Source of the DNA: an uncultured delta proteobacterium
GTDB lineage: Bacteria > Desulfobacterota > Desulfomonilia > Desulfomonilales > Desulfomonilaceae
Direction: 5' to 3'
Assembly: GCA_963789265.1 (NCBI GenBank)
Contig: CAWBKB010000007.1
Span: 416,001-480,000 of the forward strand
Length of the DNA: 64,000 nt
Shown here: one piece after another, positions 28,810-39,351 of the stretch
Layout: each line of letters opens with the position of its first letter
Numbering within the stretch: the first letter of the stretch is position 1
The notes under the pieces: model-generated
The model's input: only the letters and a program-made list of their open reading frames with translations
The model's database searches: none
Told to the model about the DNA's origin: nothing
Translations under genes and position numbers: made by a program

Positions 28810-31092
28810 TTAAAAACCCTTATATGGGTTGGGATCGAAACCGGCGAGCGTTTCCATGAAATCGTCTACCAATTTCGGGATCGTATGGAATTCACTTATC
28901 GCCAATTGGTGGACAACTATACGTTCCGGTTCCAGGACGAGGCGCTGCAAAGTCTCTGAGATCTTCCCCATTCGATACTCCGCAAGCTCGCTCCCCTTCA
29001 TGAAGTGGCATTGATAGTCGTCACCGTATTTACAGCCGATCAACATGATACCGTCAATGCCCTTGGACAGCGCGTCGGCGATCCAAACCATGTTGATGTT
29101 GCCGAGGCATCTTAAAGGAATAAACCTCACAAAGGGGCTGTACTCAAGCCTGTTGATTCCGGCCATGTCCACCGCGGGGTACGCGTCGTTTTCACAAACA
29201 AAAATCACCACTCGAGGTTTTTCCGCGTACTCATCGGGAACATCTATGCATTTCACCATGGAACCGATCATGTCCACTGAATGATCTCTGAAGGAAATGA
29301 TCCGCTCGGGACACGAGCCCATGCAGATAGCGCAACGCCGGCAGCGGGTCGGATTGGGCAAAGGTGTGCCGTCAGGCTTTTCGTCATACGCACCGAATGG
29401 GCATTCTTCCGTGCAACGCTTGCACTGCGTGCACCTCTGGACGAAAATCTCGGGGAAGGACTCATCGCCGGCCCTCGGATGAACTGCTTTACCCTGAGAA
29501 ACCAGCTCAACACACTGAATGGCTTTCAGAGCCGCACCAACCGCGTCGGTTTCACAGCTCTGGAAGTCCATGGGCTGTCGAACGCAGCCGGCTGTATAGA
29601 TTCCAGTTCTTTGGGTCTCGTATGGAAAACAGATGAAATGAGAGTCGTTGAAACCGTACGGGTTCTCCGGTAAAAACGGTCCTTGGCGGTACTTGAGATT
29701 CAATATGGCCGCATCTCTAGTCGCAGGAACCATGCCCGTTGACAACACCACCAGATCGACATTGATCTTCATCTTTTCGCCGAGCAGCGTGTCCTTCAGG
29801 TCCACATTGAGCCCGGCAGACCCGTTGGAAACACCCACGGCAGTCCCCTTGGAAAGAAAAACGCCGGGGTCGTCCTGCATGGCCTGGTAGAATAATTCAT
29901 ACTGCCCCGGAGTCCGCATATTCTCATAGAAGATGTAGGCCCTGCCGTCGGGGTTGGTCTTTCGCAGATACTGCGCCTGTTTCAGCATGATCAGAGAGGC
30001 CACAGACGAGCAGTAAAGCAGTGGATGCTCGGCTTCCTGATTTGCCGCATCTATGAACGCAATGCTGCTCACTTCCTTGCCATCGGAAGGTCGCGTGATT
30101 CTTCCTTTGGCAGCAAGCTCCTCCATCTCAACACTAGTGATCACGTCGGGGTACTGACCGTAACCCAGGTGGGAATATCCTGACGCTTCCTCCGGCCGCC
30201 ATCCGGCCGCAAGAATCACCGCACCCACACGAACTTTCTCATGTTCGAAATCGGCGGTCTCCGTTACCTCTTCCTCAACCTCGGCCTGTTCCTGCGCGGG
30301 TGCAGCCGGTTTAGGCTCCTCTTCTCCGGCGGCTTTGGCATTCTTGGCCGCGAGCCACTCGTTCTGTTCTTTGTCGAGTTGGTCGATCCAGGGTCCGTCA
30401 GGGCGGATGATAACGTCGAACATGCCGGGAGCACCGGAAATGCTGTACACTCTCCGGCCGGTGTAGACTTTGATCTTTTCGACGGAGTTTACTGCTGCGA
30501 TCTTCTCATGAACCGGGGAATCGGTCACTTCGTTATACGGCGGCTTTCCGGTGAACACTTTATGGAACTTGTTGGCCCATCCACCCAGATCCGGATTCTT
30601 CTCGACGAGATAGACCTGATAACCTGCGGCTGCGGCTTCCAGAGCTGCCGTCATGCCGGTCATCCCACCGCCTATGACAAGGATGCCCTTGTCCACTGCT
30701 TCCATAAAAGGCGGTCTGTCCTCATATTTGGAAGTCTTTGTGATCCCCATCCTCATGTAATCTTCGGCCAGCATCTGGGTATCTTCATCGTTCGCCGGAT
30801 GTGACCACACCACGTGTTCCCGAAGATTCACCCGTTCGGTAATAACGCCGTCAAATGTGAATTCCTTCTGAAAGACTCGGGGAGAAGGCCCGGCGATGAT
30901 TACCGCCGTAAGCCCCTCGTTTGCAATGTCGTTTCTTATGATGGCAAGCTTGTCCGGATCACTCCAGTAAGATTCGGCTCGACAAACCGGTACCTTGAAT
31001 TCACCGGTGGCCACAGCGGAAAGGGCGTCGATGTCCAGCGCATCCTTAATCCCGTAACCTGTATCAATATAAACTGCGATCTTGTGGTCCAT
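28810..31092 (-). CDS. qmoB: QmoB (HdrA-like flavoprotein + ferredoxin + MvhD-like domain)
   Basis: VIGGGMTG, FICFPYETQRTG, CTQCKRCTEECP, CENDAYP, GCKYGDDYQCHF. Confidence 0.96.
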   Translation of the reverse strand: MDHKIAVYIDTGYGIKDALDIDALSAVATGEFKVPVCRAESYWSDPDKLAIIRNDIANEGLTAVIIAGPSPRVFQKEFTFDGVITERVNLREHVVWSHPANDEDTQMLAEDYMRMGITKTSKYEDRPPFMEAVDKGILVIGGGMTGMTAALEAAAAGYQVYLVEKNPDLGGWANKFHKVFTGKPPYNEVTDSPVHEKIAAVNSVEKIKVYTGRRVYSISGAPGMFDVIIRPDGPWIDQLDKEQNEWLAAKNAKAAGEEEPKPAAPAQEQAEVEEEVTETADFEHEKVRVGAVILAAGWRPEEASGYSHLGYGQYPDVITSVEMEELAAKGRITRPSDGKEVSSIAFIDAANQEAEHPLLYCSSVASLIMLKQAQYLRKTNPDGRAYIFYENMRTPGQYELFYQAMQDDPGVFLSKGTAVGVSNGSAGLNVDLKDTLLGEKMKINVDLVVLSTGMVPATRDAAILNLKYRQGPFLPENPYGFNDSHFICFPYETQRTGIYTAGCVRQPMDFQSCETDAVGAALKAIQCVELVSQGKAVHPRAGDESFPEIFVQRCTQCKRCTEECPFGAYDEKPDGTPLPNPTRCRRCAICMGSCPERIISFRDHSVDMIGSMVKCIDVPDEYAEKPRVVIFVCENDAYPAVDMAGINRLEYSPFVRFIPLRCLGNINMVWIADALSKGIDGIMLIGCKYGDDYQCHFMKGSELAEYRMGKISETLQRLVLEPERIVVHQLAISEFHTIPKLVDDFMETLAGFDPNPYKGF

Positions 31093-31096
31093 TGAC

Positions 31097-32362
31097 TTAC
31101 CTCCCCACCGTATCCTGAAGGGCCTTCAAGGCAGCTCCGGTAGCATCCTGCAAGCAGGTGCCGACATCCATAGGTCGCCTGGAAACACCGGCAGGATGTA
31201 CACCTTCGTCCGAGATCATGAATCCGAATTCGTCATAAGCCACGTTCAGACCCGGGACTTTTTCCTCGCTGGTGTTGGGTTGCATTCCGGTGGCGAGAAC
31301 AGCCATATCGAAGGCACGTCGAATTTTCTTGCCTGAGAGAATGTCCTCTCCTTCGAGGATCACGTCTTTCGTGCTCGGGTCCTCCGTTATATTAACGATC
31401 TTCCCCTTGGTGAGCAGCACCATTTCGTCTTTCCTCACTCTGTCGTAAAAGAATTCGAAACGACCATAGGCTCTCAGGTCGATATAGAAAATGTGCGCCT
31501 GCGCATCAGGATTGTAGTCCCGAAGGTACGTGGCCTGTTTCAAAGATGCCAGGCAACATATCGAAGAGCAATACGGCAAATGGTTCCTGTCTCGGGAGCC
31601 CGCACACTGGACGAAGGCAAGGTTGTTAACCTTCTTGCCGTCTGAGGGCCGAACGATCTCCCCTTTGGTGGGGCCTCCCGGAGCAGCCAGTCTTTCCATC
31701 ATCACATTGGTAATGACGTTGGCACATTTCCCGAAGCCCAACTTGTCCAGTTTAGAGGGGTCGTATGGCTTCCAGCCGGTGGCCCACACCACTGAAGCCA
31801 CTTCCACATTGAAAGTTTCCGGCTTGGCGTCCAGGTCGATGCGGATGCCCTTGTTGGTGCAGGACTCTATGAAGGAGTTATATTCCAGGCGGCCTTGCAA
31901 TTTCTTGAGGGCATCCCGGTCAACCACGAGATTCATAGGGTAGGCCATCTCGTAGGGCAAACGTACCGCTTTGACTGTATCCATATCGTAATTGAAGTCG
32001 TTGGGGATTTCCGCGGGGCAGTCGTCCACACACTTACTTGTAGCGGTGCGGTCCTCCACATACCTAGGTGAAACCCTGATGGTTGCGGTATAGTTGCCCG
32101 GTTTTCCAGTAATATTTTCTACTTCCGACAAGGTATACACGGCAATATCGGGATTCCTTCTTATTCTTCTGAAATTGATTTCCAGGCCGCATGTGGGAGG
32201 ACACAGCTTCGGAAAATACTTGTTCATCCGGGCTACCCGGCCTCCGAGATAGGGCAACTTTTCGACCAGGATCGCCTTGCAGCCGGCTTCCGCGGCTTCA
32301 ACCGCGGCCGTAATACCGCTAATACCGCCCCCGACGACCAGTACGGTTTTGTTTCCAGCCAT
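31097..32362 (-). CDS. qmoA: QmoA (HdrA-like flavoprotein)
   Basis: VVGGGISG, KYFPKLCPPTCG, QCAGSRD..YCSSICC; start MAGNK with GGAGG RBS. Confidence 0.96.
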   Translation of the reverse strand: MAGNKTVLVVGGGISGITAAVEAAEAGCKAILVEKLPYLGGRVARMNKYFPKLCPPTCGLEINFRRIRRNPDIAVYTLSEVENITGKPGNYTATIRVSPRYVEDRTATSKCVDDCPAEIPNDFNYDMDTVKAVRLPYEMAYPMNLVVDRDALKKLQGRLEYNSFIESCTNKGIRIDLDAKPETFNVEVASVVWATGWKPYDPSKLDKLGFGKCANVITNVMMERLAAPGGPTKGEIVRPSDGKKVNNLAFVQCAGSRDRNHLPYCSSICCLASLKQATYLRDYNPDAQAHIFYIDLRAYGRFEFFYDRVRKDEMVLLTKGKIVNITEDPSTKDVILEGEDILSGKKIRRAFDMAVLATGMQPNTSEEKVPGLNVAYDEFGFMISDEGVHPAGVSRRPMDVGTCLQDATGAALKALQDTVGR

Positions 32363-32383
32363 GCTTCCTCCCTGAAAAGGACT

Positions 32384-32468
32384 ATGAGGGGGCAAAAAAA
32401 TGCCCCCTCATCAGCTTGTGTCGCAATCGAACAAAACTCCGGGCACCTCAAGAAGCACCCGGAGTTCT
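32384..32468 (-). terminator. Two hairpins between aprA and qmoA (terminator or mRNA stabiliser)
   Basis: Minus strand AACTCCGGGTGC...GTGCCCGGAGTTTTG; second hairpin ATGAGGGGGCA-N-TGCCCCCTCAT at 32384-32411. Confidence 0.6.
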
Positions 32469-32487
32469 GAAGGTTAGTCGTTATTAG

Positions 32488-34362
32488 TTAAACTATGGTA
32501 ATAACAGGAACTTTCTTCATTTCCCATTCGCCGTTCTTGTAAGTGGCGTTTGCGAACACCTTCCAGTTGGCCTCATCCATCGTCGGGAAATCGTTCCGGA
32601 AGTAGTAGCCCGGCCAGCGGGTCTCTTCGCGGAAGAGAATCGTCCTGACGTGGACTTCCGCCTGCCACATTCTCTGGATGTTCTCATGGCAGCGCATCAG
32701 CTCGTGCAGGCTCGAAGCAGCCAGCTTGTCGGAGTCTTCGTTGAGCCAGTTAAGGAGTTCAAGCGCCCTTTCCAGCTTCGGCTTGTTGGTCTTGAAGCCG
32801 GCGGTGACCCCTGCCGCGTACTCGTCCATAATCTTCTGCAGACGGAACATGAACATCTTGGGTTTCATGAACTCCGGGTTGATGTCCGGATCGCTGGATT
32901 TGGCTGCATGCTCGGTATATAGGTCCAGAGGCTTCAAGATCTGCTTCTTCAACGCCTCTACTTTAGCCGCGTCGACGTTCGGCAGGTTGTTATTGTCGAG
33001 CACGAAACGTACTATCGACTTACCGGCCGCACGACCTTCAGCATGAGATCCCGAAGAGAACTTATGGCTGGATGCGCCGGACGCGTCACCCGCGGAGAAG
33101 AGACCCTTCACTGTGGACATATATTCATAGCCCCAGAAGTACTCTTTTGGAGCCAGATCTTTGGGACCGCTCACCCACGCACCGGAGGCACCGGAGTGTG
33201 AACCGATGAAGTAAGGCTCAGAGGCTGCGATCTCGGAGGACTTCTCCTCGGGCTGGACGTTGGTGCCGGCCCAGAGAATGGCCTGGGCAATGGTCATGTC
33301 GAGGAAGTCTTCCCATGCCTCGGTTTCGAGTTCCTTCATCTTCTTCTTGTAAGCCTTCGGATCATCCTTGAGGGCCTCTGCGATCTTCTGAATGGCTTCT
33401 TCCGTTCTCATGTAGATCGGACCCTTGCCCTCGAACTCATCGAGCATGCCCAAGTAGTTACGCAAGTTGGCTGGGATCGGCTTCACTTTGCCGTAGGAGC
33501 CCCAGTTGTCCAACTCTGCCTTGCGCTCCACCATGTACTCGCCGCCGAACGCGTTGGTCGCACGGGACTTGAACAGGAGGAACCACGCGCCGACCGGGCC
33601 GTAACCGTCTTTGAAGCGGACGGGGATGAAACGCACTTCCTGGCAGGTCAGCTCCGCGCCGGCCATAAGGGTGAAGTACGTGCTGGAGCCCGAGTTCCAC
33701 GGCGGATACCACGCACGGCCAAGACCTTCACCTACGCTTCTCGGCTTGAATACGTGAACCGCGCCGCCCATGGCCGCGAGGACAGCTTTGGCCTTGAACA
33801 CGTAGAATTTTTCTTCACGAGTGCTGAAACCGACGGCGCCGGCAATGCGGTCCCCGTCCATGAGGGGAGTAGTGATGAAAACGCGCTCAAAGTACTCACC
33901 GCCGCGCTGGCTGAGAGCAGTCTTGGCCGCCTCGGCCACGATGACTTTGTAGGACTCGCCGTTGATCATGAGCTGCCAACGACCCTCATGAACAAAGTTG
34001 CCCTGCTCGTCCTTCCAGATGGGAAGACCCCATTTTTCAAAGAGATGAACAGAAGAGTCCACGTGACGGGCAATGTCATAGACCAGGTCTTCACGGGTGA
34101 TGCCCATGAGGTCGTTACGGACGTAGTTGACGTAGTCAACAACCGTGTTGTTGCCGCTGTTGATGTCCACGTACTCGTTGATGGCCGAAAGGCCCATGGC
34201 TACTGCGCCGGAACGGTCCATGGCAGCCTTATCCACCAAGGTGACCTTCAGACCGTTCTTGTTGGCCCAATAGGAGGCCTCGACTGCTGCGCCGCATGCC
34301 GCCATACCGCCGCCGCAGATCAGAATATCAGTGGTTACTTCGACGGTTTCAAAATTCGCCAT
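32488..34362 (-). CDS. aprA: Adenylylsulfate reductase alpha subunit
   Basis: RSGAVAMGLSAIN, WQLMINGESYK, GRAWYPPW, RFKDGYGPVGAWF, HKFSSGSHAEG, REETRWPGYY. Confidence 0.98.
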   Translation of the reverse strand: MANFETVEVTTDILICGGGMAACGAAVEASYWANKNGLKVTLVDKAAMDRSGAVAMGLSAINEYVDINSGNNTVVDYVNYVRNDLMGITREDLVYDIARHVDSSVHLFEKWGLPIWKDEQGNFVHEGRWQLMINGESYKVIVAEAAKTALSQRGGEYFERVFITTPLMDGDRIAGAVGFSTREEKFYVFKAKAVLAAMGGAVHVFKPRSVGEGLGRAWYPPWNSGSSTYFTLMAGAELTCQEVRFIPVRFKDGYGPVGAWFLLFKSRATNAFGGEYMVERKAELDNWGSYGKVKPIPANLRNYLGMLDEFEGKGPIYMRTEEAIQKIAEALKDDPKAYKKKMKELETEAWEDFLDMTIAQAILWAGTNVQPEEKSSEIAASEPYFIGSHSGASGAWVSGPKDLAPKEYFWGYEYMSTVKGLFSAGDASGASSHKFSSGSHAEGRAAGKSIVRFVLDNNNLPNVDAAKVEALKKQILKPLDLYTEHAAKSSDPDINPEFMKPKMFMFRLQKIMDEYAAGVTAGFKTNKPKLERALELLNWLNEDSDKLAASSLHELMRCHENIQRMWQAEVHVRTILFREETRWPGYYFRNDFPTMDEANWKVFANATYKNGEWEMKKVPVITIV

Positions 34363-34382
34363 ATCTTGGTACCTCCTAATGA

Positions 34383-34826
34383 TTACTTCTTAATTGTAGG
34401 CAGCTCTTTGAGCCGCAGAGCCTCAGGCTCATTGTACAGGCACTGGCTGGCCAGGTCTGTGGTGACTTCACCAAACCCGCCATCAGGCTTGACCTGACCT
34501 TCTGGAACCTTTCGGATGGGGAATTTGAACCGCTTCACCTGGCCGCTGCGGAACTTGACCGTCCACATGATGTCTTCGGAACCCCTCAGGGGCACCACCG
34601 ACGCTCCCATCGGAACGAAGTCGGCATAACCTCTGACGTCTATCGCCTGCTGCGGGCAAATTTTCACGCAGTTGTAGCACTCCCAGCACATTTCGGGTTC
34701 CATGTTCCAGGCTTTCATTTTTTCTTTGTCCAGAACCATCAAGTCATTAGGGCAGATGTACATGCAAGCGGTCTTGTCCTGGCCCTTGCATCCATCACAT
34801 TTTTCCATGATAACGAAACTTGGCAT
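34383..34826 (-). CDS. aprB: Adenylylsulfate reductase beta subunit
   Basis: CDGCKGQDKTACMYICPNDLM, CWECYNCVKICP, RGYADF, KRFKFPIR. Confidence 0.98.
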   Translation of the reverse strand: MPSFVIMEKCDGCKGQDKTACMYICPNDLMVLDKEKMKAWNMEPEMCWECYNCVKICPQQAIDVRGYADFVPMGASVVPLRGSEDIMWTVKFRSGQVKRFKFPIRKVPEGQVKPDGGFGEVTTDLASQCLYNEPEALRLKELPTIKK

Positions 34827-35345
34827 GAACCAACCTCCTAGTTAGTTTGAGCTTTTTTAGAGTCGTGTAACTCCTGTTGTTACGCGGCGCGTACGGCCGC
34901 CGAGTCTGTGAAGGCTCCTCCTTTCTATACGTGGTCGCTGCAGCCCCACAGGTAATGTTCATGGCGTGGGAGACGTTCACCAGCCAGCCCGGTATTTGCG
35001 TTCCTGTCGCGTTCCTCCCCCACCATCGGAACGATTTTCGCGCAGTGTCGGGTACGAAAAAGGGGCCGCAATCGCATAGACCTTCCAACAAAACTCTCAG
35101 AATTCCAACCTATCACGGAGATTTACAATATTCTGCAGTATTAAACCGGAGGTCCGGCGCAACCCCCAGCACCGCCGAAGCAGCTAAGGAATAAGGGATT
35201 CAATCAAATCTTGGTCTGGTTGTCAAGATTTTTTTCAGTGGAGAAGCCGTGAACTTGTTACTCCCTCCGCAGGGAACGCTCTTGCCACGAAAAGCGCCGT
35301 ATGCTAGTTTAATAAGTTCAGATTCGGGCGGCAAAAGGAACTCAA

Positions 35346-36314
35346 ATGACCCATCCGGGAAGAAACGATCCATGCCCATGCGGGAGTGGACTAAAATACA
35401 AGAAATGCTGCCTCGCCGGAGAAGCCACTAAACACGATCCGGACGGAGTTCAGGGCCTGCGGGCAAAGGCCTTCAAGAATATGTCCGAGCAAAAATGGAT
35501 GGAAGCCATAGAGGGATTCAAATCTATCCTGGACCGAGTCTCGGACCCGCATGCCGCGCTCGATGCGATCGCCGCCTGTTATGACGGTCTCGAGAATTAT
35601 CTCATGGCTGCGGAATTCTACGAGAAGGCTCTCGCTGTGTGTCCGGAATCACGAAGCTTCGACCTGCATTACCGGCTCGGCGTCTCCAGAGCCTGCGCGG
35701 AACGTATTGAAAAAGCTATCGATGCCTTTCAGCACTGCCTGGCGCTTCAAAGCGACACGGCATACGAACAGCGGTTGCTCGGTATACTTGAAGATCTGAA
35801 CGCGATTCTCCGGGATGAGAAGCCTCGTAGCCTTTTCCGTGTGCAAGTCCAGCTTCAGCGCGCATTTTCGGACATGGACGACAAAAATTATGAGTCCGCG
35901 GCTGCCCGACTCGAACGTATTGCCACGGATGACCCTCAAAATCCGGCGATCTTTTACAATCTCGGAGTTGCCAACTTTTTCCTAAAGAGAGAGGAAGAAG
36001 CAATTACTGAATTTGAAAGATGTGTCGCACTGAATTCCGGTTATGTTGAAGCTTGGTACAATATGGGACAAATTTATATGCTGAAACAGAAGGACTTTTC
36101 TCGAGCCCTCCACTGCTTTGACCGGGCTGCAGCAATCCGCCCGGATTACATAGGCGCACACCACCAGCGTGGGGTCGCGTACGAGCTACTTGGCAACCCT
36201 GTGAGAGCGCTGAAATGCTGGGAAAGAACGTTGGAATTGGACCCTGAGAACAAGCAGGCCAGAGAGAATATCAAGAGATTGGGCGACTCCATTGCAAACC
36301 AGCCTTGCCGGTGA
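35346..36314 (+). CDS. SEC-C motif + TPR-repeat protein
   Basis: N-terminal GRNDPCPCGSGLKYKKCC followed by multiple TPRs. Confidence 0.9.
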   Translation: MTHPGRNDPCPCGSGLKYKKCCLAGEATKHDPDGVQGLRAKAFKNMSEQKWMEAIEGFKSILDRVSDPHAALDAIAACYDGLENYLMAAEFYEKALAVCPESRSFDLHYRLGVSRACAERIEKAIDAFQHCLALQSDTAYEQRLLGILEDLNAILRDEKPRSLFRVQVQLQRAFSDMDDKNYESAAARLERIATDDPQNPAIFYNLGVANFFLKREEEAITEFERCVALNSGYVEAWYNMGQIYMLKQKDFSRALHCFDRAAAIRPDYIGAHHQRGVAYELLGNPVRALKCWERTLELDPENKQARENIKRLGDSIANQPCR

Positions 36315-36333
36315 GCGCCCTTGAAAGGACTGA

Positions 36334-37119
36334 TTGATGAAACTAAAAACCTCCCCATGTGAGCTCGAGCGCTTAATGACCTGGGATGACTCCTTCTCTT
36401 TTCGGTGTCATCCGGCTATTGACTGCTTCAACTCATGTTGCAAAGACGTGACTATATTTCTTACCTCCCTAGATGTCATCAGGCTTAGAAAAGCGCTGGA
36501 GATATCTTCCACCAATTTTCTCGAGACACATACCCATCGGCTGATCTCTCAGACCACGGGTCTGCCCGCTGTAGCCCTCAAAATGAGTCAGGATGAGGCG
36601 AAAACCTGTCCGTTTGTGAGCGCGACAGGTTGCTCCGTTTACAACGATCGGCCTTATTCCTGCCGACTCTACCCCCTGGACACCGAGCAAGGAGTGGAAT
36701 ATAAATTCGTTGTGGACGAAGGCGTGTGCCACGGGCTAAGAGAATCCCGAGAATGGACGGTCGAGACGTGGAGAAAGGATCAGGGCCTTTATGCGTACGA
36801 CGATCTCGATCACCAGCTCAAGGATGTAATGGCCGCAGATCAGGTTTTGGAAAGCAAGATTCAGGATCCGAGAATGCAGGACATGTGTCTCATGACTTTG
36901 TACGATCCTGACCGGTTTCGAGAGTTCATATTTAAGAGCAGCTTTCTTCAGAAGTTCCACGTGGATGATGACATAATGGAGAAGATAAGGGACGACGACG
37001 TCGCTCTTCTGTATTTTGCAAGCCAGTGGCTCCGTTTTGCTCTATTTGGCCAAAAAGGATTCCTGAAAATCGATCGCGATTACCTTGAACTTAAGAAACG
37101 AGAAGTTCTGGGCGGATGA
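36334..37119 (+). CDS. YkgJ (UPF0153) family cysteine-cluster protein
   Basis: FRCHPAIDCFNSCC, CPFV..GCSVYNDRPYSCRLYPL, CHG. Confidence 0.88.
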   Translation: MMKLKTSPCELERLMTWDDSFSFRCHPAIDCFNSCCKDVTIFLTSLDVIRLRKALEISSTNFLETHTHRLISQTTGLPAVALKMSQDEAKTCPFVSATGCSVYNDRPYSCRLYPLDTEQGVEYKFVVDEGVCHGLRESREWTVETWRKDQGLYAYDDLDHQLKDVMAADQVLESKIQDPRMQDMCLMTLYDPDRFREFIFKSSFLQKFHVDDDIMEKIRDDDVALLYFASQWLRFALFGQKGFLKIDRDYLELKKREVLGG

Positions 37120-37130
37120 AGGCAGGAAAG

Positions 37131-38558
37131 ATGAAACGATTTGCATGGTTCGTAGTGGCGCTCCTACTAAGCGTGATGGTTGGAAGCGCACTGGCCGCGG
37201 AATCGGCCATCGACAGACACATTAAAGATCTTAAAAGTGATAAGCCCGAAGTTCGAGCCAAGGCGGCTTTCGACCTGGGATGCGGCTGACACAAGTCGCC
37301 GAGGGCGGTTCCGCCTCTCATTGAAGCTCTGAAAGACCCGGACGCCAAAGTGCGCAGCGCCGCTACCGAATCACTCGGCTTTTTCTCGAGTCAGGCTTCA
37401 CAGATAATCCCCAAGGTGCTGGAACGCTTATCCGATGATAAAGTAGAAGTTCGACGAGCGGCAATTCAGTCGCTAGGACGACTCGGCAAGGGGAACCACA
37501 ACGTGGAGCAGGCCCTCCGCAAGTTCCTTGACGATCCGGACACGCTTACCAAGCTCAACACTATAATCGCACTCGCATCAGTGGGTAAAGTGGATGATTC
37601 GGTTATTCCCACGTTGCTCACGGCCATTAGCAATAAAGATCGGACAACTGCCAAAGCCGCCGGGCGTGTGCTGAGTCAGCTAGCTCCCGCCAAGCCGGAC
37701 AAGGTTCTACCCGGACTTACCGAGTTGCTGGACAAGAACCAGGAGCCTGGGGTCTCTAACGCATTGAAAGTATTGCGGTTTATGAAGGCGGCGGGATCAC
37801 CGGCTTTGCCCAAGATATCCACCTTGTATGATAAGGCGGACGCTCATGTTCGTTTGGAAATTTTGGGAGCTCTTTCCTCCATTGACAGTAAAGGGGATCA
37901 GGCCCTCCCTGTGCTCATTAAGGCGCTCAAGGCCCACGATATCATGGTTAAGAAAGAAGCGCTCCTCGGGGTTATACGATATAGATCCAAAGCGGATCTG
38001 TTTCTGGAACCTCTGGCCGAATCCATGAAGACAGGAGAATTGGAGAATCGCCTGTTGGCCATCGGTATCGTCCGGGGGCTGGGGCAACAAGGCTTAAAGG
38101 CGGTGCCGACGTTGATAGCCCTGACAGACGACCCGAATGTGCGTGTTCGCTCGGCCGCGATTGGCGCTCTTGCCGGTTTCAGGCCTGCACCGCCGGAAGT
38201 CCTCGAAACACTCGGCCGCAAGCTTAAAGACTTTCAGCCCGCTGTGAGGCTGGCTGCCGTGGGCGCGCTACGACAAAACGGCTACAAATATCCTGAAAAG
38301 GTGGCTGGACTATTGGAATCAGCACTGAAAGACGAAAAGAATGAGTTCACTCGACGTGCAATGGCGGCAACACTAGCCGGCATCAGGAAGGTGAAGCCGA
38401 GTACCGCTGCTGCACAATCGACGACGTCGGAAAACGTGAAGCCGAGTACCAACACCGACAAGGCGAAATCGGCCAAGTCGGAAAACTTGAAGCCGGGCAC
38501 CGCTACGGCAGAATCATCGAAATCGGACAAGGATAATCCCAAACAGGTGACCAAATAG
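37131..38558 (+). CDS. Exported HEAT-repeat protein with in-frame TGA at 37287-37289; candidate selenoprotein (C-G-U)
   Basis: Signal peptide MKRFAWFVVALLLSVMVGSALA, then DLKSDKPEVRAKAAFDLGCG*HKSPRAVPPLIEALKDPDAKVRSAA in frame with track ORF 37350-38558; alternative start 37116 overlaps the YkgJ stop (ATGA). Confidence 0.75.
37301..37319 (+). promoter_or_regulatory. Candidate bacterial SECIS hairpin
   Basis: GAG-GGCG [GTTC] CGCC-(T)-CTC; stem begins after an 11-nt spacer from the TGA, apical loop begins with GU, one bulged U. Confidence 0.6.
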
Positions 38559-38656
38559 CCTAACCTTTTCGCAGAACCGGCTAACGGATCCCAGAAGGCG
38601 AGATGGAAAGTGGGAAGCGGAAGCCGATACTCTCCGCTGCCTTTGGTCGCGGGCAT

Positions 38657-39061
38657 TCATAGCCAAAACATTCTTGGCACTTGAAAATCTACGTTGTAGA
38701 ATCTAATCACTTCATCCAGACTGATGCGAAAAACGTGACCCGCGCGCTGTGCTTTGGTCCGAAAGTTACTATTGCGGAACAGAAGTCGCAGGAGTGGAGG
38801 GATTCGAGGTACATCTTTATCGAGAACATTAAAGCAAACGATACAGAAGCGCCGATCAGCTCGTATCTTGTTCCAAAAATGATTGACATTGATGGTTATA
38901 AAGGCTGGATGTCGCTGTCGACAAAGGAGCGACGGAATAGCGTCATCTTTTATTATTGTCGCCGGTCGCAAGTCGTTCACTAGGCGGACTGCACCGTGAT
39001 ACCATTGAGCGATAGTCTGTTCTAGTTGCCGACCTCCTAGTTGCTCGTCGAGTACAATCAC
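38657..39061 (-). CDS. PIN-like (VapC45/DUF5615-like) putative toxin
   Basis: MIVLDEQL, IKDDAI, FITINVNHF; directly downstream of the DUF433 gene. Confidence 0.65.
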   Translation of the reverse strand: MIVLDEQLGGRQLEQTIAQWYHGAVRLVNDLRPATIIKDDAIPSLLCRQRHPAFITINVNHFWNKIRADRRFCIVCFNVLDKDVPRIPPLLRLLFRNSNFRTKAQRAGHVFRISLDEVIRFYNVDFQVPRMFWL

Positions 39062-39351
39062 TAGGCCGCAGCACGCTTGGACAGTTTCTTATTAAGTTTT
39101 TTGCCAAGCTTGCTCGCGATCTGCATTGCTTCAGAGATGGCCTCCCTTGGCACTCGACCGCCATAACCTTCCACAATGTAGTCGACACTCTCTCCGGCAT
39201 CGATCCGTGACAAGGTCCCCGCAACCTCAATCCGTGTATATTTGAAGGTGGGCCGCCCCCCGCAAACGCCCTTGGCGCGCACAACATGCTCTCCTAGCGG
39301 GTAATACTCATAGGGTTCACCGCCCACGATTTCGGTGACCAGTTTTGGCAT
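39061..39351 (-). CDS. DUF433 family putative antitoxin
   Basis: GVCGGRPTFKYTRIEV, AGESVDYIVEGY, EAISEAM. Confidence 0.85.
   Translation of the reverse strand: MPKLVTEIVGGEPYEYYPLGEHVVRAKGVCGGRPTFKYTRIEVAGTLSRIDAGESVDYIVEGYGGRVPREAISEAMQIASKLGKKLNKKLSKRAAA

Follow-up and report, generated by a model that had tools for sequence, protein, structure and literature searches.

The window analysed here is a stretch of 64,000 nucleotides (nt) from an uncultured delta proteobacterium of the family Desulfomonilaceae (assembly GCA_963789265.1, contig CAWBKB010000007.1, positions 416,001 to 480,000 of the forward strand). At positions 37131 to 38558 it holds a reading frame with a single in-frame TGA, which probably encodes a secreted HEAT-repeat protein with selenocysteine (Sec, U) at residue 53. 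The best explanation of the region is that it constitutes one gene for a genuine selenoprotein, and a probability of about 0.88 is assigned to it. The gene displays every feature by which bacterial selenoprotein families are defined computationally, and it is very likely that it encodes a selenoprotein. It founds a selenoprotein family that is recorded in databases only as truncated proteins and is confined to one group of sulfate-reducing bacteria, the Desulfomonilaceae.

Reading frame and probable selenocysteine codon

Calling of open reading frames (ORFs) with translation table 11 splits the region in two, 37116..37289 (57 aa) and 37350..38558 (402 aa, GTG start). The read-through translation of 37131-38558 gives 475 residues and contains one TGA only, at residue 53. 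The features of the gene are as follows.

37119..37130, + strand: ribosome-binding region, purine-rich, AAGGCAGGAAAG, from direct reading of the sequence
37131..38558, + strand: coding sequence of the probable HEAT-repeat selenoprotein, 475 residues, TAG at 38556-38558, from read-through translation, Pfam, orthologue alignment and AlphaFold
37131..37196, + strand: predicted Sec-type signal peptide, residues 1-22 (MKR, hydrophobic core, A-L-A followed by A)
37281..37283, + strand: TGC codon of Cys51, the sole Cys of the protein, with Sec two residues later
37287..37289, + strand: UGA, probably read as selenocysteine, residue 53, from column conservation and the Sec machinery in the genome
37301..37319, + strand: hairpin resembling a selenocysteine insertion sequence (SECIS), 7 bp with a bulged U and the apical loop GUUC, present in the minimum free energy structure
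38403..38555, + strand: predicted disordered C-terminal tail, Lys/Ser/Thr/Ala-rich, residues 425-475, from low predicted local distance difference test (pLDDT) values

An earlier reading of this DNA, made from the letters without database searches (the sequence-only reading), had named the ribosome-binding site (RBS), ATG 37131, the TGC, the TGA, the spacer and the hairpin, and all of them were found at the positions that it gave. Its observation that the Cys two codons before the TGA is the only one in the read-through protein also holds for Cys51. The span that it proposed, 37116..38558, needs a correction at its 5′ end: the translation start is the conserved ATG 37131, while ATG 37116, which overlaps the stop of the upstream gene, has no counterpart outside the window's genus. 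The stretch AAGGCAGGAAAG lies directly before ATG 37131, and purine-rich stretches likewise precede the conserved MKR/MRR starts of the orthologues. By direct reading, no RBS is present in front of GTG 37350.

Pfam HEAT_2 (PF13646) matches the read-through protein with an E-value of 7.7e-52 (174 bits, cut-off 27.7), and the best stretch of this match, residues 34-116, crosses residue 53. Thus, the DNA on either side of the TGA belongs to one coding unit, as had been supposed from the letters. The orthologues align from residue 1 to about residue 440, each with a single internal TGA. A scan for promoters and terminators in 34700-39200 gave nothing above shuffled sequence.

Conservation of the UGA codon and distribution of the family

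The genomes of 60 relatives, 36 of them from the same bacterial family, were searched with stop codons read through. A match was present in 35 of the 36 same-family genomes, and nearly all matches, with identities from 88% down to 29%, hold exactly one TGA. The 46 family members used below comprise 30 genes of the main type (the window and loci L012-L040), 10 paralogues and 6 further paralogue loci; among 16 further places fetched, L048-L051, L055 and L056 were left out as generic HEAT proteins of about 300-410 aa or for lack of a match. In the orthologue L017, found in genome G003, about 45 mid-gene residues are out of frame and a second match lies in another frame, suggesting two frameshifts or a fault of the assembly.

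The TGA occupies one alignment column in 44/46 members, and the other 2/46 have Cys there. It is kept in all 30 main-type genes, where the surrounding motif is ELG-C-[G/S/T]-U-x-[K/R]-x-x-R-A-V-P-P-L, in eight of the ten paralogues and in all six further paralogue loci; the two exceptions are L041 (...GTCC...) and L045 (...GQTC...). With five database proteins (P0053-P0056 and P0151) added to these two, seven homologues have Cys at the Sec column. Neither Trp, Arg or Gly nor any other residue besides Cys was seen at this column among the family-sized full-length homologues. The sequence-only reading had asked for TGA or Cys at this place in homologues and had named Trp, Arg or Gly as the outcome that would speak against a selenoprotein; the former was observed throughout.

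In an alignment of 38 Sec and 2 Cys forms (A2), seven columns do not vary (C53, L67, D69, V74, R75, D102 and D135), the Sec/Cys column being among them, and conservation within the gene is highest over the 20 codons between the TGA and GTG 37350. A Cys at position -2 relative to Sec occurs in 30/30 main-type orthologues and is absent from most paralogues.

A scan of one genome per species (about 185,000 species), seeded with 14 orthologues, yielded 47 loci, all with Cys at -2 as C-x-TGA (CS 23, CG 21, CT 2, CA 1). Those with a named taxon are assigned to Desulfomonilaceae, Desulfomonilales or Desulfomonile, or carry older labels (Syntrophaceae, delta proteobacterium). Records under the name Desulfomonile tiedjei (L077, L094) contain the gene. 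One of the two peptide patterns used in the scan began with Cys at the Sec column and could match Cys forms only, which limits the reach of the scan beyond the main type. In a 400-genome sample of the phylum, matches at E <= 1e-25 were found in 7/7 genomes of Desulfomonilaceae and in 0/393 others.

The SECIS-like hairpin

The hairpin begins after a spacer of 11 nt (37290-37300) and is made up of GAGGGCG (37301-37307), the loop GUUC (37308-37311), CGCC (37312-37315), the bulged U (37316) and CUC (37317-37319). It consists of the codons for (P)-R-A-V-P-P-L in the second HEAT repeat, so that the R-A-V-P-P-L stretch serves both the protein and the RNA.

For comparison between genes, a hairpin was counted when it started 9-14 nt past the codon and had at least 6 bp, at most one bulge and a loop of 3-6 nt with G in the first two bases. 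Such a hairpin is present in 38/38 TGA genes, starting 9-12 nt after the TGA, and in 0/2 Cys genes; at other in-frame positions of the same genes the background is 1449/14573 (9.9%). Codon usage points in the same direction. With the hairpin codons chosen in advance, the mean normalised entropy of the R-A-V-P-P-L codons over 56 unique sequences of the main type is 0.30 vs 0.93 for 25 further conserved codons in the vicinity (Mann-Whitney U = 0, p = 9e-5). In the codon alignment of 30 orthologues, no stretch of 7 columns anywhere in the gene scores lower than the hairpin (0.20 vs 0.85).

In one subclade, represented by 7 unique sequences, GAGGG...CCUCUC is replaced by AAAGG...CCUUUG, a compensatory change from G-C to A-U in which the bulged U becomes paired. 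The bulged base of the 3′ arm is itself variable (U, A or C). Paralogues with differing peptides after the UGA have hairpins of their own at the same distance, for example GAGAUC/GGGCA/GAUCUC and CGGUC/GGUUC/GACCG. Positions 37000-37600 found no match in Rfam, with E-values up to 10 allowed; the library may hold no general bacterial SECIS model.

Selenocysteine machinery and genetic code

The presence of the Sec machinery in the genome, which had been suggested as a check, was established: selB (386 bits), selA (594 bits), selD (360 bits) and tRNA-Sec (71 bits) all score above the curated cut-offs, and ARAGORN reports a tRNA-SeC with the anticodon TCA. TGA is the commonest stop codon of the genome and ends 1174/2187 ATG-started ORFs of at least 300 aa; therefore, the recoding is local and the code has not been reassigned. 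Another selenoprotein gene of this genome is selD (G000:C7:193442-194362, - strand, L009): its frame contains a TGA (...QASG-U-AAKL...), which is followed after 13 nt by a 7-bp hairpin with a G-first loop.

Predicted structure, export and database records

Besides HEAT_2, the protein matches the Pfam families HEAT (PF02985, 87.9 bits) and HEAT_PBS (PF03130, 47.9 bits). The AlphaFold model, built with a 40-row alignment, has a pLDDT of 90.2 and a predicted template modelling score (pTM) of 0.80, and shows 22 helices forming a solenoid. Sec53 is placed in the loop 52-56 between helices 39-51 and 57-66, which is the first inter-repeat loop. The model agrees with the alpha-solenoid bearing Sec near its mature N-terminus that had been proposed for this gene. 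The pLDDT falls below 50 for residues 425-472, in a tail whose length and sequence are not conserved in the orthologues; in the window this tail (38403-38555) holds the imperfect repeat SENVKPST / SENLKPGT. A Foldseek search returned generic solenoids alone, the best being alphaRep 6fsq (3.3e-12), followed by designed armadillo proteins, the PP2A A subunit and importin-alpha.

A basic segment followed by a hydrophobic one was found at the N-terminus of 46/46 family members, and it is inferred that the protein carries a Sec-type signal peptide and is exported to the periplasm. Eight NCBIfam families matched, none of them at the cut-off and none being a selenoprotein model. Identity with CpcE, CpcF or NblB was rejected, the NCBIfam scores being 51.3 vs 300 for NblB, 37.5 vs 330 for CpcE and 29.8 vs 220 for CpcF. 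A thioredoxin-fold oxidoreductase was also rejected, given an all-alpha predicted fold and a motif consisting of either C-x-U or a lone U.

The 43 closest proteins among 5.8 billion database sequences are 290-392 aa long and cover 61-79% of the query; the named ones are called 'HEAT repeat protein'. The Sec-form entries begin at varied internal codons just past the hairpin, and these starts fall inside a helix. The Cys form L045 has four database relatives, all of full length (437-440 aa) and all with Cys at the column. In a profile search of 1.84 billion representatives giant multi-repeat HEAT proteins prevailed, and single-stretch hits alone were used: among the 19 of family size, 17 have their first residue at profile position 58 or beyond, which follows closely on the Sec column, and the two full-length ones are the Cys forms P0054 and P0151 (...GACC...). 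Since they are cut at the TGA, the public Sec-form entries lack the signal peptide, the first repeat and the putative reactive residue, and the protein looks like an uninteresting cytoplasmic HEAT protein.

Gene neighbourhood of the main type

The selenoprotein gene is the last of a tight cluster of three genes with gaps of 19 and 11 nt. The neighbouring features are listed below.

35346..36314, + strand: SEC-C/TPR protein, first gene of the cluster (Pfam SEC-C, a zinc motif at the N-terminus, 1.9e-10, residues 6-23; TPR families)
36334..37119, + strand: CxxCxxCC (YkgJ-like) Cys-cluster protein, second gene (Pfam PF03692, 8.8e-09; TGA stop)
28810-34826, - strand: qmoB, qmoA, aprA and aprB, the operon of adenosine 5′-phosphosulfate reductase and Qmo (Pfam), divergent from the cluster across a 519-nt intergenic region

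The SEC-C/TPR and CxxCxxCC proteins show no sign of a signal peptide and should therefore be cytoplasmic, in a different compartment from the selenoprotein. The CxxCxxCC gene is directly upstream in 47/47 scan loci. A TPR gene is found upstream in 44/47, the three misses having less than 900 nt of upstream flank, and aprB is divergently upstream in 39/39 main-type scan loci with a flank long enough.

The CxxCxxCC family occurs in 138/301 sampled genomes of the phylum. The idea that it is a general apr-linked gene was rejected: 13 loci have no TPR, HEAT or apr neighbours, save for aprA adjacent once. Outside Desulfomonilaceae (L123-L135) the CxxCxxCC genes stand mostly as tandem pairs of paralogous genes. 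Downstream of the selenoprotein gene, at 38657-39061 (- strand), there is a 134-aa ORF with no Pfam match, for which a tblastn match was found in 3/47 scan loci (85%, 56% and 50% identity).

Paralogues and evolution of the probable selenocysteine site

The context of the paralogues was sampled at 16 loci, 3 of the main type and 13 of other types. In 11/13 non-main loci the HEAT gene is preceded on its own strand by a rhodanese-like gene, and in 9/13 a MauE/DoxX gene stands between the two. A DGC-domain gene is added in 4/13, and a multihaem cytochrome c follows in 4/13. The rhodanese-like proteins (alignment A5, which includes L042:1402-1896, L045:905-1399 and L053:924-1424) have an N-terminal membrane anchor and the invariant motif LYCYGPECDMAE with two Cys; among the NCBIfam models, the rhodanese_LYCAU (seleno)protein comes closest to them, with a score below the cut-off. 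The Cys-Cys form L041 stands after a thioredoxin gene with a signal peptide.

The paralogue L042 is convergent with and abuts dsrMKJOP, all five subunits of which score above the NCBIfam cut-offs, and the same DsrP also adjoins L052 and L044. The complete dsrMKJOP operon at L136:289-5284 (- strand), again with all five subunits above the cut-offs, is convergent with the rhodanese-like/HEAT-Sec paralogue operon that it adjoins, and has an RsbRD_N-domain gene upstream of dsrM. The rhodanese/MauE-type paralogues L042, L052, L053, L054 and L044 share a C-terminal motif (...IPGEELGR, ...PAGWELGRND, ...MPGEDLTR, ...RPGEEIGGFR) that is not found in the window's type.

Among the paralogues, a Cys near Sec is at position -3 in two and is missing from the vicinity in nine; L054 has no Cys at all. 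The C-x-U pairing is thus not general, since several paralogues keep Sec with no Cys nearby. In a quick maximum-likelihood tree (unrooted), the two Cys forms occupy separate places among the Sec forms, L041 standing with two Sec genes at an approximate likelihood-ratio test (aLRT) value of 96. Because the Cys forms sit apart, the tree suggests at least two exchanges between Sec and Cys in the family.

Interpretation and alternative explanations

In the established bacterial route, Sec is inserted with the participation of SelB carrying Sec-tRNA(Sec) and of a SECIS hairpin 3′ of the UGA. In the window's gene, the hairpin 37301-37319, 11 nt past the UGA, would recruit SelB with Sec-tRNA(Sec), and Sec would be inserted at residue 53. 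The signal peptide would send an alpha-solenoid of about 45 kDa to the periplasm, where Sec53 would occupy the loop that joins the first two repeats, with the sole Cys standing two residues ahead of it (C-G-U).

As to the function, the gene context leads to the proposal, held at about even odds, that the solenoid serves as a scaffold for binding, with Sec as the reactive centre of a thiol/sulfane-sulfur relay in the periplasm. Acting on a bound partner, Sec may attack sulfur or take it over, or it may reduce a disulfide or persulfide there. Cys51 would then resolve Sec as a selenenylsulfide in the window's type; in the paralogues, the membrane-anchored rhodanese-like and MauE/DoxX proteins would serve Sec. 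There may be a connection with dissimilatory sulfate reduction, whose operons aprBA-qmoAB and dsrMKJOP flank the two gene types. A bolder version, which seems doubtful at present, regards the HEAT-Sec proteins as the missing periplasmic partners of sulfate respiration in Desulfomonilaceae: a Sec persulfide/thiol shuttle carried on the solenoid, which the membrane-anchored rhodanese-like and the MauE/DoxX proteins would load or recycle, would exchange sulfur or electrons with DsrJ/DsrO or multihaem cytochromes, and the aprBA-linked type would form a second branch of this relay.

A number of results weigh against the selenoprotein or against the role proposed for it. The selenoprotein is strongly supported, by evidence that is computational throughout, and the base call of the TGA is known from the assembly alone. 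The sequence-only reading was right about the hairpin after the 11-nt spacer, which is kept in 38/38 TGA genes, but the hairpin of the window taken singly does not exceed chance: its 66-nt fold has z = -1.0, and 30/200 shuffles are at least as stable. It is the conservation across homologues that lifts it above chance. The hairpin definition given above is post hoc, and 9-38% of synonymous resamples also satisfy it; moreover, in no sequence is the free energy better than under synonymous resampling (fraction as stable 0.04-0.69). Covariation, which had been proposed as a check, appears as the one compensatory subclade but is not significant column by column in 38 sequences at a fixed register (88.3% of cells paired vs 86.9% shuffled, a level reached by 14/500); only a single pair varies in both of its bases, and the covariation score does not reach the mean of the shuffles. 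This null result is explained by the main type hardly varying and the registers of the paralogues being shifted. RNAalifold with the 38 sequences gave no pairs and no consensus structure.

Other results weigh against the relay and its gene context. The window's gene has no rhodanese or MauE neighbour, and the rhodanese-like gene of its genome is located elsewhere, alone. The dsrP adjacency concerns 3/13 non-main loci, two of which are close relatives. Downstream, parE is kept in 32/47 scan loci, so that general synteny within the family is high, and the conserved gene order says little because all members come from one bacterial family. An intramolecular Cys-Sec couple is not the common mechanism of the family, since many paralogues have no Cys at -2 and L054 is free of Cys.

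Among the alternatives, the one that retains most weight, although it is unlikely, accepts the selenoprotein and assigns Sec53 (with Cys51 where present) to the binding of a metal or metalloid, the solenoid being a periplasmic metallochaperone or sensor. The paralogues with a lone Sec and no Cys in the mature protein fit a ligand as well as a nucleophile, and the spacing of Cys near Sec is variable (C-x-U, C-x-x-U or none, with C-C in a Cys form). The neighbours contain putative metal-chelating motifs (CxxCxxCC, SEC-C and the DGC domain), and the table of PMC13188914, in the part of that source available, has several metal-binding selenoproteins with CU, UxxU or GxU motifs. However, a flexible loop that offers one or two chalcogen ligands is ill suited to the binding of a specific metal, and no conserved column of His, Asp or further Cys accompanies Sec. 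The CxxCxxCC and SEC-C proteins, having no signal peptide, belong to another compartment, and what recurs in the neighbourhood is a set of sulfur or thiol proteins (rhodanese-like, MauE/DoxX, thioredoxin, DsrMKJOP), not metal transporters.

It is very improbable that the TGA is a real stop, in which case a 52-residue secreted peptide (...LGCG) would be followed by a HEAT protein starting at GTG 37350, with the hairpin serving coupling or attenuation. Such an arrangement agrees with the table-11 ORF calls and with all public annotations of relatives, and TGA is the most frequent stop of the genome. Yet peptide conservation runs unbroken over the TGA and is highest in the codons between it and 37350, one HEAT_2 match spans the site, and the start at 37350 lacks an RBS. 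Moreover, the annotated starts of the relatives are inconsistent and lie inside a helix, and the seven homologues with a Cys codon instead of TGA are full length.

Equally hard to sustain is a reading of the UGA by a near-cognate tRNA (Trp, Cys or Arg), or by some other recoding, with no selenocysteine involved. Leaky UGA read-through does occur in bacteria, and the identity of the residue inserted here is deduced from sequence alone. Against it stand the hairpins with a small G-first loop 9-12 nt downstream in 38/38 TGA genes, the frozen synonymous sites, the complete Sec machinery of the genome and the fact that Cys, the chemical analogue of Sec, is the sole replacement; if Trp or Arg were wanted, a sense codon would be simpler for selection to fix. 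A nonsense mutation, a pseudogene or a base-call error of the assembly is hardly credible, with the TGA present in 44 family genes and 47/47 scan loci that were independently assembled in many projects. A single selenoprotein gene thus remains the preferred explanation of the region.

Comparison with known systems

A full-text search of the literature found no HEAT-repeat selenoprotein and nothing on these gene contexts; an unnamed 'hypothetical' entry in supplementary tables could correspond to the present family. In the searchable part of the text of PMC13188914, a 2026 review, 'heat', 'repeat', PF13646 and PF02985 each have 0 occurrences, and, as far as this text extends, the family is missing from its catalogue of prokaryotic selenoprotein families. 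The accessible portions of PMC12013277 (deep-Sep), 10.1101/2022.07.06.499078, PMC13510729, PMC1976440 and PMC5029168 likewise hold no HEAT-repeat selenoprotein. Table 1 of PMC13188914 includes, in the part seen, a rhodanese-like form 3 (NF041203, CxU) and a thioredoxin-like Sec.1 (CxU). The present family resembles the redox-motif families of that review, to the extent that the available text describes them, in the C-x-U of its main type, in its extracytoplasmic and redox context and in the logic of discovery (TGA, Cys homologues, SECIS). Unlike them, it has an alpha-solenoid in place of a thioredoxin or rhodanese fold, and many paralogues have Sec with no partner Cys. Sec would thus be carried on a repeat scaffold, a fold otherwise known for partner binding and not for catalysis.

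The repeats are of the HEAT_2 and HEAT_PBS type, as in CpcE/CpcF, NblB and the designed alphaRep proteins. The selenoprotein differs from CpcE, CpcF and NblB in being secreted (as predicted) and Sec-bearing, in coming from a non-photosynthetic anaerobe and in scoring far below the cut-offs of these families.

In mycobacteria, the DoxX-SseA-SodA complex represents a DoxX-rhodanese module of thiol homeostasis. The paralogue operons are similar to it in pairing a MauE/DoxX membrane protein with a rhodanese-like protein. They differ in that the rhodanese-like protein is membrane-anchored and has the LYCYGPEC motif, and in that a secreted HEAT selenoprotein would be the third member; the window's own gene is without those neighbours. 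With the periplasmic side of DsrMKJOP the HEAT proteins share a predicted location, DsrJ and DsrO also being predicted periplasmic, and one paralogue group adjoins dsrMKJOP as the main type adjoins aprBA-qmoAB. This likeness is one of adjacency alone, convergent or divergent and not co-transcribed, in one bacterial family. Together, the aprBA-qmoAB, dsrMKJOP, rhodanese-like and MauE/DoxX contexts suggest where to look for sulfur chemistry in the periplasm of sulfate reducers, in a way that can be put to the test.

The textbook bacterial selenoprotein gene is fdhF of E. coli, with a SelB-dependent SECIS just 3′ of the UGA. Like known genes of this kind, the window's gene has an in-frame UGA followed by a short spacer (11 nt here, 13 nt in selD of the same genome), a GC-rich stem of about 7 bp and a small G-first loop. 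It also has Cys in some homologues and is accompanied in the genome by selA, selB, selD and tRNA-Sec. It is unlike known bacterial SECIS genes in that the hairpin is built from the A-V-P-x-L consensus codons of a HEAT repeat and has a variable bulge on the 3′ arm. A hairpin made from the most typical codons of the repeat would be a clean natural case of a dual constraint on protein and RNA.

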